In this document: in pieces, positions 5,404 to 64,000 of the stretch
Numbering within the stretch: the stretch's first letter is position 1
Layout of the letters: every line of letters begins with the position of its first letter
DNA from: Escherichia coli
GTDB lineage: Bacteria > Pseudomonadota > Gammaproteobacteria > Enterobacterales > Enterobacteriaceae
Direction: 5' to 3' (one strand)
DNA: 64,000 nt
Assembly: GCF_045037415.1 (NCBI RefSeq)
Contig: NZ_CP173438.1
Notes under the pieces: model-generated
Seen by the model: only the letters and a program-made list of their open reading frames with translations
What the model was told of the DNA's origin: nothing
The model's database searches: none
Translations under genes and position numbers: made by a program

Positions 5404-6180
5404 TTATTCTTCAGTTTTTTCGCTTTCTGCTTCAGCGTCGTTTTCCTCTTCCCGGTTTCGCCCTTTACCAACGTAAAAGCGTGAGAAGAAGACACCGATT
5501 TCAAACAGGCAGTACATCGGGATCGCCAACAGCGTTTGCGAGAAGACATCCGGCGGCGTCAGCAACATCCCGACAACGAATGCACCAACCAGCACATACG
5601 GGCGTTTTTTGCGTAAGTCTTCTGGCGAGGTAATCCCCATCCAGCACAGCAGCACAATTGCCACCGGCACTTCAAAGGAGACACCAAACGCCATAAACAG
5701 CGCCATAACGAAGCTTAAATAGCTCGCGATGTCGGTGGATACCTGTACCCCTTCCGGCGCGGTATTGGCAAGGAAGCCAAATGCCAGCGGAAAGACCACA
5801 AAGTAGGCGAACGCCATGCCGATATAAAACAGCAGAGAGCTGGAAACCAGCAGCGGCACCACCAGGCGACGTTCATGCTTATACAGCGCTGGGGCGATAA
5901 ACGCCCACACCTGATAGAGAATCACCGGCGCTGACAGAATCAGCGACACCATAAAGGTCAGCTTGATCGGCGTAAAGAACGGCGAGGCCACGTCGGTGGC
6001 GATCATCGTTGAACCTTGCGGCAACTGCTTGATCAATGGCGCGGATACCAGGTGATAGATGTCATTGGCGAAATAGACCAGACACAGGAATATCACGATC
6101 ACCGAGATAATGCAGTTCAGCAGACGCTTACGCAGCTCAATCAGATGCGTGATAAGCGGTTGAGTATCTTCTACAGACAT
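5404..6180 (-). CDS. tatC: Sec-independent protein translocase TatC
   Basis: 258 aa polytopic membrane protein matching TatC. Confidence 0.95.
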
Positions 6181-6182
6181 GT

Positions 6183-6698
6183 TTACGGTTTATCACTCGA
6201 CGAAGGGGAAGGTGCAGCGGTTTTCGGTTCAGCGTCCGCAGCAGGTTTTACCACCGGCTCTGGCGTGGTTTCTGGCTTCTGTTCCGGCGAACTGGCCTGC
6301 GTTTGTGCAGCAGCAGGCGTTACGCCTTCATGCACAGTTTCATTGTCTTTCACCACCGGGTTATGGATGGTGTGCGCTTCATCGCTCGCCTTTTCAGGAT
6401 CGTTTGCAACGTAGGAACGCTTCATCGACTCCGCAGCCTGGCGTAATTCATCCATCGACGCTTTCAGTTCGGGCGTCAGGTTAGTGAGGCTCGCCTTTTC
6501 AACCTTTTTCAGACTGTCCTGAAACTCCTGGAGTTTTAACTCCTGGGTCAGTTCGTTCTGCACCGTTGTCGCCAGTGAACGCAACGCACGAATCCAGCCC
6601 GCTACCGTTTTTACCGCCACAGGCAGTCGTTGCGGCCCCAGAACGACGAGGCCGATGATGAACACCAATAGCAGTTCGCTAAAACCGATATCAAACAC
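6183..6698 (-). CDS. tatB: Sec-independent protein translocase TatB
   Basis: 171 aa, N-terminal TM helix + amphipathic helix, matches TatB. Confidence 0.95.
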
Positions 6699-6701
6699 AG
6701 A

Positions 6702-6971
6702 TTACACCTGCTCTTTATCGTGGCGCTTCGCGTCTTCTGTTTTAGCCTGTTCCTGATTCGTATCCGCCTGCTTATCGGCGATAGTTTTCGCAGTAAAATC
6801 AGCATCCTGGCTGGTTTTATCCTGCTTTGGTTCATCATCGCTCATTGCTTTTTTAAAGCCTTTGATCGACGCACCAAGATCGGAACCGATGGAGCCGAGC
6901 TTTTTGGTGCCAAAAAGCAGTACAACGATGACGGCAATAATCAATAACTGCCAAATACTGATACCACCCAT
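6702..6971 (-). CDS. tatA: Sec-independent protein translocase TatA
   Basis: Matches TatA from [14 protein letters not shown] (89 aa); ORF-track extension of 14 codons trimmed. Confidence 0.9.
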
Positions 6972-7049
6972 ACATGTTCCTCTGTGGTAGATGATGATTA
7001 AACAAAGCCGCATTATACGTTACACGGCCCGCCTTGAGCGATGAAAAAA

Positions 7050-9292
<2,243 letters not shown>

Positions 9293-59062: not shown

Positions 59063-59448
59063 GACGTATCGCCTGATTTGCTACCCGTCATGACTGTGAT
59101 TCCGCCAACATCAACGGTAACACGCGGCATTCGGGATATTTCGTATGTCAAAGGTAACCGTTACCACTTTTCGCGCCTGGTTTTTTTAGTTTCACGACGA
59201 AAAAATGGTCTAAAACGTGATCAATTTAACACCTTGCTGATTGACCGTAAAGAAAGATGCGCTACATACAAGTGTAGCACCGTTTATTCTCTGTAAATTC
59301 CTTATTACGAAGGCTCAAAGCGCCTGTCAGGATCCACTGCCCGACCTCATTTTACGGTTTGCGCAGGCGTCTACGTTTCACCACAACACTGACATCGCTC
59401 TGGCAAGGATGTTAGGATGGACCACGGATGATAATGACGGTAACAAGC

Positions 59449-60390
59449 ATGTTAGACAATGTTTTAAGAATTGCCACACGCCAAAGCCCACTTGCACTCT
59501 GGCAGGCACACTATGTCAAAGACAAGTTGATGGCGAGCCATCCGGGCCTGGTCGTTGAACTGGTACCGATGGTGACGCGCGGCGATGTGATTCTTGATAC
59601 GCCGCTGGCGAAAGTAGGCGGAAAAGGCTTATTTGTTAAAGAGCTGGAAGTCGCGCTCCTCGAAAATCGCGCCGATATCGCCGTACATTCGATGAAAGAT
59701 GTGCCGGTTGAATTCCCGCAAGGTCTGGGGCTGGTCACTATTTGCGAGCGTGAAGATCCTCGCGATGCATTTGTGTCCAATAACTATGACAGTCTGGATG
59801 CGTTACCGGCAGGCAGTATCGTCGGGACGTCCAGTTTACGTCGCCAGTGCCAACTGGCTGAACGCCGCCCGGATCTGATTATCCGCTCCCTGCGCGGCAA
59901 CGTCGGCACTCGCCTGAGCAAACTGGATAACGGTGAATACGATGCCATCATTCTTGCCGTAGCCGGACTAAAACGTTTAGGTCTGGAGTCCCGCATTCGC
60001 GCCGCGTTGCCACCCGAGATTTCTCTTCCGGCGGTAGGGCAAGGTGCGGTGGGCATTGAATGCCGCCTTGATGATGCACGCACTCGCGAGCTGCTCGCCG
60101 CGCTGAATCACCACGAAACTGCACTGCGTGTTACCGCCGAACGCGCCATGAATACCCGTCTCGAAGGCGGATGTCAGGTGCCAATTGGTAGCTACGCCGA
60201 GCTTATTGATGGCGAAATCTGGCTGCGTGCGTTGGTCGGCGCGCCGGACGGTTCGCTGATTATTCGCGGTGAACGCCGCGGTGCGCCGCAAGATGCCGAA
60301 CAAATGGGGATTTCGCTGGCAGAAGAGCTACTGAATAACGGCGCGCGCGAGATCCTCGCTGAAGTCTATAACGGAGACGCCCCGGCATGA
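59449..60390 (+). CDS. hemC: Porphobilinogen deaminase (hydroxymethylbilane synthase)
   Basis: 313 aa from [19 protein letters not shown] (the ORF track starts 7 codons upstream). Confidence 0.9.
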
Positions 60391-61127
60391 GTATCCTGGT
60401 CACCCGCCCGTCTCCCGCAGGAGAAGAGTTAGTGAGCCGTCTGCGCACACTGGGGCAGGTGGCCTGGCATTTTCCGCTGATTGAGTTTTCTCCGGGTCGA
60501 CAATTACCGCAACTTGCTGATCAACTGGCAGCGCTGGGAGAGAGCGATCTGTTGTTTGCCCTCTCGCAACACGCGGTTGCTTTTGCCCAATCACAGCTGC
60601 ATCAGCAAGATCGTAAATGGCCCCGACTACCTACTTATTTCGCCATTGGACGCACCACCGCGCTGGCACTACATACCGTAAGCGGACAGAAGATTCTCTA
60701 CCCACAGGATCGGGAAATCAGCGAAGTCTTGCTACAATTACCTGAATTACAAAATATTGCGGGCAAATGTGCGCTGATATTACGTGGCAATGGCGGTCGT
60801 GAGCTAATTGGGGATTCCCTGACGGCGCGCGGTGCTGAGGTCACTTTTTGTGAATGTTATCAACGATGCGCAATCCATTACGATGGTGCAGAAGAAGCGA
60901 TGCGCTGGCAATCCCGCGAGGTGACGACGGTCGTTGTTACCAGCGGTGAAATGTTGCAGCAACTCTGGTCGCTGATCCCACAATGGTATCGTGAGCACTG
61001 GTTACTACGCTGTCGACTATTGGTCGTCAGTGAGCGTTTGGCGAAACTCGCCCGGGAACTGGGCTGGCAAGACATTAAGGTCGCCGATAACGCTGACAAC
61101 GATGCGCTTTTACGGGCATTACAATAA
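60387..61127 (+). CDS. hemD: Uroporphyrinogen-III synthase
   Basis: 246 aa, 4-bp overlap with hemC, matches HemD. Confidence 0.9.
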
Positions 61128-61148: not shown

Positions 61149-62354
61149 ATGACGGAACAAGAAAAAACCTCCGCCGTGGTTGAAGAGACCAGGGAGGCCG
61201 TGGACACCACGTCACAACCTGTCGCAACAGAAAAAAAGAGTAAGAACAATACCGCATTGATTCTCAGCGCGGTGGCTATCGCTATTGCTCTGGCGGCGGG
61301 CGTCGGTTTGTATGGCTGGGGTAAACAACAGGCCGTCAATCAGACTGCCACCAGCGATGCCCTGGCTAACCAACTTACGGCACTGCAAAAAGCCCAGGAG
61401 AGCCAAAAAGCCGAGCTGGAAGGCATTATCAAGCAACAAGCTGTACAGCTTGAGCAGGCGAATCGTCAGCAAGAAACGCTGGCAAAACAGCTGGATGAAG
61501 TCCAACAAAAGGTCGCCACCATTTCCGGCAGCGATGCTAAAACCTGGCTGCTGGCCCAGGCCGATTTTCTGGTGAAACTCGCCGGACGGAAGCTGTGGAG
61601 CGATCAGGACGTCACGACCGCTGCAGCGTTGCTGAAAAGTGCAGACGCCAGCCTGGCGGATATGAATGACCCGAGTCTGATTACCGTTCGCCGGGCAATT
61701 ACCGATGATATCGCCAGCCTTTCTGCGGTATCGCAGGTGGATTATGACGGTATCATCCTTAAGCTTAATCAGCTTTCAAATCAGGTAGATAATCTGCGTC
61801 TGGCCGATAATGACAGCGATGGTTCGCCGATGGATTCCGACGGTGAAGAGCTTTCCAGTTCCATCAGCGAATGGCGTATCAATCTGCAAAAAAGCTGGCA
61901 GAATTTTATGGACAACTTCATTACGATTCGCCGTCGTGATGACACTGCCGTACCGCTGTTAGCGCCAAATCAGGATATCTATCTGCGCGAAAATATCCGC
62001 TCTCGCCTGCTGGTCGCAGCACAAGCTGTACCGCGTCACCAGGAAGAGACTTATCGCCAGGCGCTGGAGAACGTCTCCACCTGGGTACGTGCTTACTACG
62101 ATACTGATGATGCCACCACCAAAGCGTTCCTCGACGAGGTGGACCAGTTAAGCCAGCAAAATATCTCGATGGATCTTCCGGAAACCCTGCAAAGCCAGGC
62201 GATGCTGGAAAAATTGATGCAGACCCGCGTGCGTAACCTGCTGGCACAACCGGCAGCAGGGACAACGGAAGCTAAACCTGCACCTGCACCTGCACCTGCA
62301 CCTGCACCTGCACCGCAAGCTGATGCTCCGGCAGCCGCGCCGCAAGGAGAATAA
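61149..62354 (+). CDS. hemX: HemX-family membrane protein (putative uroporphyrinogen-III C-methyltransferase)
   Basis: 401 aa; N-terminal TM helix, coiled-coil, C-terminal Pro-Ala repeat. Confidence 0.85.
62277..62312 (+). repeat. Perfect hexanucleotide tandem repeat (cctgca)x6 inside hemX, encoding (Pro-Ala)6
   Basis: Read directly from the sequence: cctgcacctgcacctgcacctgcacctgcacctgca. Confidence 0.9.
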
Positions 62355-62356
62355 CC

Positions 62357-63553
62357 ATGCTAAAAGTGTTATTGCTCTTTGTGTTGCTGATTGCGGGGAT
62401 CGTGGTTGGCCCGATGATTGCCGGCCATCAGGGTTACGTGCTGATCCAGACCGACAACTACAATATTGAAACTAGCGTCACGGGCCTCGCGATTATTTTG
62501 ATTCTGGCGATGGTAGTGCTGTTTGCCATTGAGTGGCTACTGCGGCGAATCTTCCGCACAGGCGCGCACACCCGTGGGTGGTTTGTCGGACGTAAGCGTC
62601 GCCGTGCACGTAAGCAGACCGAACAGGCGCTGCTGAAACTGGCGGAAGGCGATTATCAGCAAGTTGAAAAGCTGATGGCGAAAAATGCCGATCACGCTGA
62701 ACAACCGGTGGTGAACTATCTACTGGCAGCCGAAGCCGCGCAACAACGTGGTGATGAAGCACGCGCCAACCAACATCTGGAACGCGCAGCGGAGCTGGCC
62801 GGCAATGACACCATTCCGGTAGAAATCACCCGTGTACGTCTGCAACTGGCCCGTAATGAAAACCATGCAGCACGTCACGGCGTTGATAAGCTGCTGGAAG
62901 TTACGCCACGCCATCCGGAAGTATTACGTCTGGCGGAACAGGCGTATATCCGCACAGGGGCATGGAGTTCGCTGCTGGATATCATCCCATCAATGGCGAA
63001 AGCCCATGTTGGTGATGAAGAACATCGTGCAATGCTGGAACAACAGGCATGGATTGGCCTGATGGATCAGGCGCGTGCCGATAACGGTAGCGAAGGTTTG
63101 CGTAACTGGTGGAAAAACCAAAGCCGGAAAACGCGTCATCAGGTGGCCTTGCAGGTGGCAATGGCGGAACATCTTATTGAGTGTGACGATCATGATACTG
63201 CCCAGCAAATTATCATCGACGGCCTGAAACGCCAGTATGACGATCGCCTGCTGCTGCCGATCCCGCGTCTGAAAACCAATAATCCGGAACAGCTGGAAAA
63301 AGTGCTGCGCCAACAGATCAAAAACGTGGGCGATCGCCCGCTGTTGTGGAGCACACTGGGTCAGTCGCTGATGAAACACGGAGAATGGCAGGAAGCATCG
63401 CTCGCCTTCCGCGCAGCGCTGAAACAACGTCCGGACGCCTACGATTACGCATGGCTTGCCGACGCGCTGGACAGACTGCACAAGCCGGAAGAAGCCGCAG
63501 CGATGCGTCGCGACGGTTTGATGCTAACGTTGCAAAACAACCCACCGCAGTAA
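62357..63553 (+). CDS. hemY: HemY-family TPR membrane protein
   Basis: 398 aa, 2 N-terminal TM helices + TPR-like repeats, matches HemY. Confidence 0.9.
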   Translation: MLKVLLLFVLLIAGIVVGPMIAGHQGYVLIQTDNYNIETSVTGLAIILILAMVVLFAIEWLLRRIFRTGAHTRGWFVGRKRRRARKQTEQALLKLAEGDYQQVEKLMAKNADHAEQPVVNYLLAAEAAQQRGDEARANQHLERAAELAGNDTIPVEITRVRLQLARNENHAARHGVDKLLEVTPRHPEVLRLAEQAYIRTGAWSSLLDIIPSMAKAHVGDEEHRAMLEQQAWIGLMDQARADNGSEGLRNWWKNQSRKTRHQVALQVAMAEHLIECDDHDTAQQIIIDGLKRQYDDRLLLPIPRLKTNNPEQLEKVLRQQIKNVGDRPLLWSTLGQSLMKHGEWQEASLAFRAALKQRPDAYDYAWLADALDRLHKPEEAAAMRRDGLMLTLQNNPPQ

Positions 63554-63555
63554 TC

Positions 63556-63588
63556 TATATCGCCTCGTTCAGGGGCGATATTTTTTTA
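63556..63588 (+). terminator. Rho-independent terminator of the hemCDXY operon
   Basis: atatcgcc-tcgttcagg-ggcgatat stem followed by 7 T. Confidence 0.6.
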
Positions 63589-63602
63589 CAAGGATGTCAA
63601 AC

Positions 63603-64000
63603 ATGCGCACACCGTCCCGCTATATTTTCCGCTTACCATCACATGAAATTAATCCTTTTCGGGCAACGCTCTTGCTGATTTTGTTGATATGTGCCGTTCT
63701 GGCTGGCGTAAGTTGGCTGATTCTGTCCTTCGTACGTACAGGCAATACATTCATCTTCTGGTTAACACTTTTTATTGGGTATCTGATAGCCATTGCGAAG
63801 CAGGAAAAAATCAAGCTCATCGAGAAGCGCCAGATTATGGCTGATAAACGTCAGGGACTTTCCATTTGTCAGTTCGCACGCCAATTTTCCCCCCACACCG
63901 TAGATACATGGGTGATTCGGGCTGTGTGGAATACCTTACAAGGAAACGGCTATATCGATTATCCATTACCACTGAAAGCCAGTGATAAACTGGACGATGA
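63603..64000 (+). CDS. Hypothetical membrane protein, 5' part only (ORF runs off the window end)
   Basis: ATG at 63603 opens a stop-free frame of at least 132 codons (MRTPSRYIFRLPSHEINPFRATLLLILLICAVLAGVSWLILSFV...), with two predicted TM helices then a charged soluble region. It is not in the ORF track because no stop is reached. Confidence 0.3.
   Translation, partial: MRTPSRYIFRLPSHEINPFRATLLLILLICAVLAGVSWLILSFVRTGNTFIFWLTLFIGYLIAIAKQEKIKLIEKRQIMADKRQGLSICQFARQFSPHTVDTWVIRAVWNTLQGNGYIDYPLPLKASDKLDD

Follow-up and report, generated by a model that had tools for sequence, protein, structure and literature searches.

The 64-kb stretch of Escherichia coli DNA analysed here (hereafter, the window) carries a perfect hexanucleotide repeat within the 3′ part of hemX, and this raises the question of what kind of locus it is, how its length changes and whether a change of length has any consequence for HemX or for the gene that follows. 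We put at roughly 90% the probability that the repeat is the known VNTR CVN014 behaving as an in-frame, near-neutral length polymorphism driven by slippage.

A perfect in-frame hexanucleotide repeat near the 3′ end of hemX

Direct reading of the window located a perfect (CCTGCA)x6 array within hemX on the + strand at 62277–62312, exactly as the original prediction had it. TRF reported the same array (62276–62314, period 6, 6.5 copies, 100% matches, score 78), which was the top scorer among its arrays in the window. With the size and composition of the window taken into account, a perfect 36-nt tract of period 6 has a chance expectation of about 6e-14, and the runner-up among perfect periodic tracts in the window (periods 2 to 9) measured 17 nt. 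The tract begins at codon position 1 of the open reading frame at 61149..62354 (+; 401 aa plus the stop codon) and reads K-(PA)6-PQ. Residues 377–388 of the 401 are thus (Pro-Ala)6, in line with the claim of an in-frame Pro-Ala run near the C-terminus.

The reading frame was assigned to hemX by its profiles and by its position. Its product scored 719 bits against the NCBIfam equivalog NF008173 (cut-off 313) and 361 bits against Pfam PF04375 (cut-off 25.9; E 4e-108), and the RefSeq annotation of an identical sequence is also hemX. The gene order is hemC-hemD-hemX-hemY: hemC (59428–60390, +) and hemD (60387–61127, +), both recognised from their ORFs and from the annotation of homologous loci, lie upstream in the hemCDXY operon, and hemY (398 aa; 62357..63553, +; ORF and RefSeq annotation) follows. 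hemY begins 2 nt past the hemX stop codon, and the repeat tract lies 40 nt upstream of it. An AAGGAG motif (62344..62349, +), read directly from the final hemX codons CAA GGA GAA (Q-G-E), stands 7 nt before the hemY ATG at 62357, and its position makes it a putative Shine-Dalgarno-like element for hemY; strain 1218KP has GGACAA in place of AAGGAG at this end of hemX. A terminator scan returned a terminator-like stem-loop with a T run directly 3′ of hemY (63557..63581, +). Scans for Rfam families, tRNAs, promoters and terminators around the repeat revealed nothing relevant to it.

Some further features of the window and its counterparts were recorded. The sole Rfam match in the window was a full-length Erse small RNA (RF02757; 8687–8938, −; 317 bits, gathering score 138), and no tRNA genes were found in it. 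Right after the hemY terminator, a 199-aa ORF (about 63595–64000, +) runs off the end of the window. It corresponds to the 'hypothetical protein' WP_001260226.1 of the O25:H4 strain 18044 (5462–6061 of the fetched locus), and its sequence contains hydrophobic segments, while its C-terminal half is acidic. Both the window and the O25:H4 genome have this ORF, which is missing from the O157:H7 hemY-aslA spacer (679 bp, against 1270 bp). In E. coli EPSSH018, aslA and aslB lie 3′ of hemY as truncated pseudogenes, beside an ISApl1-family (IS30-like) transposase (6148–8378 of the fetched locus).

The repeat is the MLVA locus CVN014

The original prediction viewed the tract as a potential strain-typing locus. 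This was right, but it missed that the locus was known before and is in wide use for that very purpose. Lindstedt and colleagues reportedly described in 2007, in J Microbiol Methods, a generic E. coli MLVA scheme that includes a 6-bp locus named CVN014. The generic scheme is said to be known as GECM-7 / GECM-10, after the work of Lindstedt et al in 2007 and of Lobersli et al in 2012.

The CVN014 primers, whose sequences are given in Table 1 of PMC8143711, both match the window without a mismatch. The 'R' primer, GCAGCRGGGACAACGGAAGC, lies at 62253..62272 (+), where 0 matches were expected by chance, and the 'F' primer, TCCCCGCAATCAGCAAMACAAAGA, lies at 62376..62399 (−), inside the start of hemY. 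The two are convergent and bracket the repeat, with an amplicon of 147 bp (62253–62399). By the published allele formula, (product size − 111)/6, the window carries allele 6, that is (147 − 111)/6, and the same calculation returned the counted number of units in 12 of 12 further genomes with 2 to 15 units. Since both published primers match exactly around the tract and the amplicon fits 111 + 6x6, the repeat is the already known locus CVN014; the observation was correct, but not new. Primers, the 6-bp unit with its 111-bp offset, and polymorphism, including the 5 or 6 units of ST131, all coincide with CVN014, and no difference from it was seen at the sequence level.

Published typing work describes CVN014 as the 'most variable locus' of the MLVA assay (PMC3877011) and as the most polymorphic one in non-O157 STEC, with 9 alleles, a range of 4–15 and D 0.83 (PMC3519732). 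In ST131 it was behind most single-locus variants, with alleles 2–11 and the other loci fixed (PMC3407997). Every allele from 2 to 12 was seen in a Swedish ESBL collection, and among O25b-ST131 isolates 59% had 5 units and 41% had 6 (PMC5217547), a pair that we reproduced here with strain 18044 (5 units) and the window (6 units). The Japanese EHEC MLVA locus EHC-1 has 5–12 repeats over O157 clades (PMC10062581), a range that resembles the hemX units counted here in O157:H7 genomes (5, 7 and 12); judged by this repeat range, EHC-1 may be the CVN014 site under another name.

CVN014 has several traits in common with Salmonella Typhimurium STTR5 and with E. coli O157-19/TR7 and O157-25/TR4, namely short hexanucleotide units that are coding and in frame, fast stepwise gain and loss, discrimination at the outbreak level and proneness to homoplasy. 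These loci are taken to lie in genes other than hemX, provisionally so for the O157/EHEC ones. In the open-access MLVA papers that we read, we found neither a placement of CVN014 in hemX nor a statement of the Pro-Ala run. A literature search for hemX together with tandem repeats likewise gave nothing relevant, and a Salmonella VNTR paper has hemX only as a SNP site.

Repeat number varies widely among E. coli genomes

A 336-nt segment centred on the repeat was used as the query against 5,426 complete E. coli genomes, with matches in 5,425. We sampled 59 full-length matches at even steps down the ranking, and drew a second systematic sample of 59 genomes with the K-12 allele as the query. Match spans in the first sample lay between 312 and 390 bp and were spaced exactly 6 bp apart, and the second sample behaved alike and added a 12-unit class. 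When both samples were pooled (118 genomes), we counted 13 length alleles, of 2–13 and 15 units, with a Nei's D of 0.88. Two units were found in 20 genomes, three in 4, four in 9, five in 19, six in 20, seven in 12, eight in 9, nine in 7, ten in 8, eleven in 4, twelve in 3, thirteen in 2 and fifteen in 1; as the complete-genome set over-represents laboratory strains and clinical clones, these frequencies should not be read as estimates for the population. The allele was called by match length in 100 of these genomes and by sequence in the remaining 18. Invariance of the repeat number across strains, the outcome named in the original prediction as speaking against it, is therefore not what E. 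coli genomes display, with units ranging from 2 to 15. Both range and diversity (2–15, D 0.88) are in line with the published values for CVN014 (4–15, D 0.83; 2–12 in Sweden). An exact census of all 5,425 genomes by BLAST identity bands was considered and dropped, because long insertions split the alignment and evade the identity penalty, which leaves the bands ambiguous.

The CCTGCA run held the entire length difference in 18 of 18 fetched sequences. In the first fetch, which took one genome for each length class, K-12 had 2 units, Nissle 8, and T28R and 1218KP 15 each; the other fetched strains had 3, 4, 5, 7, 9, 10, 11 and 13 units. A variant last unit, CCTACA, occurred in only two alleles. 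The K-12 hemX gene measures 1182 nt and encodes 393 aa with 2 units, so the difference of 8 aa from the 401 aa of the window equals exactly 4 units (6 versus 2), and the suggestion that the repeat accounts for the longer HemX holds to the residue.

We also considered a sequencing or assembly artefact and rejected it, since the lengths are all multiples of 6, independent PCR/capillary-electrophoresis studies find the same alleles, and at 12–90 bp the tract can be spanned by reads. Two irregular loci came up in addition. In E. coli P276M (NZ_CP044293.1) just 80% of the query is covered by the match, and the annotation of the gene that follows hemX goes no further than 'HemY N-terminal domain-containing protein', which suggests a disruption or rearrangement of hemY in P276M. 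The other is a HemX of 485 aa on one E. coli ENA metagenome contig, with an 84-aa internal tandem duplication whose junction falls exactly where the Pro-Ala run begins (...EAKPA|HQEETYRQ...), and with a PT unit that interrupts the second repeat; this duplication could be real and repeat-mediated, or it could be an assembly chimera.

Alleles of different length share near-identical flanks

To what extent the diversity arises in place can be read from the sequence around the repeat. We compared 4 kb on either side of the segment in six genomes. O157:H7 Balcarce_24.2, O157:H7 8368 and the cattle strain 119 showed 0–1 differences in about 8,300 flanking positions, and despite these near-identical flanks they had 12, 5 and 7 perfect units, respectively. 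Similarly, the window and the O25:H4 strain 18044 had 0 differences in 5,838 comparable flanking positions, with 6 and 5 units. The original prediction had pointed to expansion and contraction by slipped strands, and clone-mates with identical flanks that differ only in unit number are what slippage predicts. In agreement with the description of the tract as a microsatellite, the copies are perfect and head to tail, the alleles differ by whole units, the flanks are constant and the change occurs among clone-mates.

An alternative source of diversity is the import of hemX alleles by homologous recombination between lineages. Flanking SNP haplotypes do vary by lineage (GCTGATGCT, GCTGATACT and GGTGATACT), and the longest sequenced alleles (11, 13 and 15 units) all sit on the GGTGATACT haplotype, so some of the structure is inherited with the flanks. 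However, a single flank haplotype bears many unit numbers: GCTGATGCT carries 3–8 and 10 units, and GCTGATACT carries 2, 5, 7, 9 and 12. Alleles up to 7 units apart at 0–1 differences in about 8.3 kb of flank largely refute import as the main source, and published variation inside ST131 (PMC3407997, PMC5217547) adds to this, which leaves allele exchange a very unlikely explanation. Since 5, 7 and 12 units are found on essentially identical flanks of about 8.3 kb, the comparison points to change in situ by slipped-strand mispairing, rather than to imported alleles.

On this mechanism, whole CCTGCA units would be gained or lost through slipped-strand mispairing at replication. Folding predictions for each strand of the tract give quasi-hairpins, in which TGCA palindromes pair across 2-nt mismatches, with predicted energies of −17.6 kcal/mol for (CCTGCA)15 (z = −6.0 versus shuffles) and −5.9 kcal/mol for (CCTGCA)6 (z = −3.3). 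Speculatively, such quasi-hairpins might help slippage.

The repeat occupies the variable tail of a poorly characterised protein

HemX, an inner-membrane protein, starts with a short segment that contains a cluster of lysines, has a single hydrophobic helix at about aa 36–57 and ends in a Pro/Ala-rich tail at aa 366–401. By the positive-inside rule, the N-terminal segment would be cytoplasmic and the remainder periplasmic. A 24-aa tandem duplication across the end of the transmembrane helix was noted in Salmonella enterica serovar Berta, whose HemX has 413 aa. The Pfam HemX domain covers aa 130–363, and the repeat lies outside this conserved domain. When HemX was aligned with its orthologues from Citrobacter and Salmonella, invariant columns were nearly unbroken up to P368, then absent, and back at about aa 388, where the terminal PQA-D/E-xPAxAPQGE begins. 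The repeat therefore fills the one poorly conserved segment of HemX, and the conserved end of the tail consists of the 13 residues after it (62313..62351, +), as aligned in Escherichia, Citrobacter and Salmonella.

A PDB sequence search with HemX found no related solved structure. An AlphaFold2 model built from a 10-sequence alignment was poor (mean pLDDT 44); in it the last helix spans aa 343–365, and aa 366–401 are coil with a pLDDT of about 30, compared with 50–77 for the preceding 80 residues. This low-confidence model gives a slight indication that the tail may be disordered. As for function, a Pfam scan (E <= 0.01) returned PF04375 alone above the cut-off, with no methyltransferase domain in HemX. 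The product name attached to hemX, uroporphyrinogen-III C-methyltransferase, is thus not borne out by a detected catalytic domain; the name is historical, and Pfam itself words this activity as 'putative'. HemX is rated as poorly characterised in a review (PMC2704936), is characterised elsewhere as a remote homologue of Mic60 without the mitofilin domain (bioRxiv 10.1101/2022.06.14.496148), and deletion of its gene is reported to reduce gentamicin sensitivity (PMC12282077).

The tail is also a place of length change in other genera. Citrobacter gillenii has 4 CCTGCA units at the homologous position and C. rodentium has 3, and C. koseri and Salmonella enterica have only one degenerate unit there. 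Among the genera examined, long perfect arrays occurred only in E. coli. HemX of Citrobacter sedlakii has 394, 397 or 400 aa by way of (PAA)1–3, a 9-bp in-frame repeat in the tail that may be a VNTR of that species. Since CCTGCA recurs in Citrobacter and a separate (PAA)n is found in C. sedlakii, the sequences compared argue for the HemX tail as a region where in-frame changes of length are generally tolerated.

Length change is most likely near-neutral

The 6-nt unit sits on a codon boundary, so each change would add or remove Pro-Ala dipeptides with the frame kept, and a Pro/Ala-rich tail outside the HemX domain would tolerate the change in length. The hemX CDS was intact and annotated in every fetched allele. 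Taken together, near-neutral length polymorphism is the most likely reading of the repeat variation.

The tract is an intragenic simple-sequence repeat of high mutability, and a translationally coupled gene begins 40 nt further on. It could also be suspected of being a phase-variable contingency locus, at which a change in repeat number would switch the expression of hemX, or of hemY behind it, on and off. The likeness to the contingency loci of Haemophilus, Neisseria and Campylobacter extends to a mutable in-gene tandem repeat that changes by slippage. However, the repeats of those genera shift the frame or the promoter spacing and thereby switch expression, whereas the hemX repeat is always in frame and the gene is never inactivated: the unit is 6 nt and in frame, the lengths sampled in 118 genomes are all spaced by multiples of 6, and each of the 18 alleles inspected (2 to 15 units) keeps the hemX CDS, the stop codon and the hemY start context. 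A frameshift on/off switch is refuted by the reading frame kept in every allele, and phase variation of any kind is hardly tenable.

A subtler possibility is that (Pro-Ala)n acts as a semi-rigid spacer that sets the reach of a conserved C-terminal HemX motif across the periplasm, its diversity being selected as a 'tuning knob' that keeps the frame. Escherichia, Citrobacter and Salmonella share a nearly invariant stretch of 13 residues after the repeat, and such conservation of the tail across genera beyond the repeat could mean that the tail, and hence its spacing, matters. The Mic60 family, of which HemX would be a distant homologue, makes contacts between the inner and outer membranes (bioRxiv 10.1101/2022.06.14.496148), and allele lengths span about 8-fold. 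There are also functional Pro-rich spacers in other envelope proteins. The Glu-Pro/Lys-Pro region of TonB and the Ala-Pro hinge of OmpA resemble the HemX run as low-complexity proline-dipeptide stretches of an envelope protein for which an extended conformation is expected. However, in TonB and OmpA the spacer joins two modules, folded or functional, and its length does not vary within a species, whereas no more than 13 residues follow the HemX run, whose length differs about 8-fold among alleles.

Other observations weigh against selected spacing. Otherwise identical O157:H7-type clone-mates have 5, 7 and 12 units; the alleles are spread broadly, peaking at 2 and at 5–6 units, with no one favoured length; and Salmonella and C. 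koseri are essentially without a PA run. The terminal codons overlap the ribosome-binding site of hemY, so they may be conserved without any function at the protein level, and on the sequence as it stands the conservation of '...PQGE' across genera may reflect translational coupling or that ribosome-binding site instead of HemX function. The literature examined contained no tail-length phenotype. We consider tuning of this kind unlikely, and the evolutionary extension of it, by which a hypermutable repeat would let E. coli lineages quickly retune the reach of a Mic60-like HemX under fluctuating selection, quite improbable.

Discussion

A near-neutral polymorphism of this sort would drift in length fast and be prone to homoplasy, behaviour to which it would owe its value for strain typing. 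CVN014 is an established marker in epidemiology and, with a scheme that dates from 2007, its routine use goes back almost twenty years. With its position known, the CVN014 allele can be obtained directly from a genome sequence (6 in the window), which lets sequence data be set against older MLVA data.

For HemX itself, the annotated length of 393 to 419 aa is a property of the strain and not an annotation error. The variation raises no new question unless tail length affects the poorly understood function of the protein. What the locus offers is a clear case in which a microsatellite within a coding sequence is tolerated thanks to its in-frame unit and its place in a variable tail.
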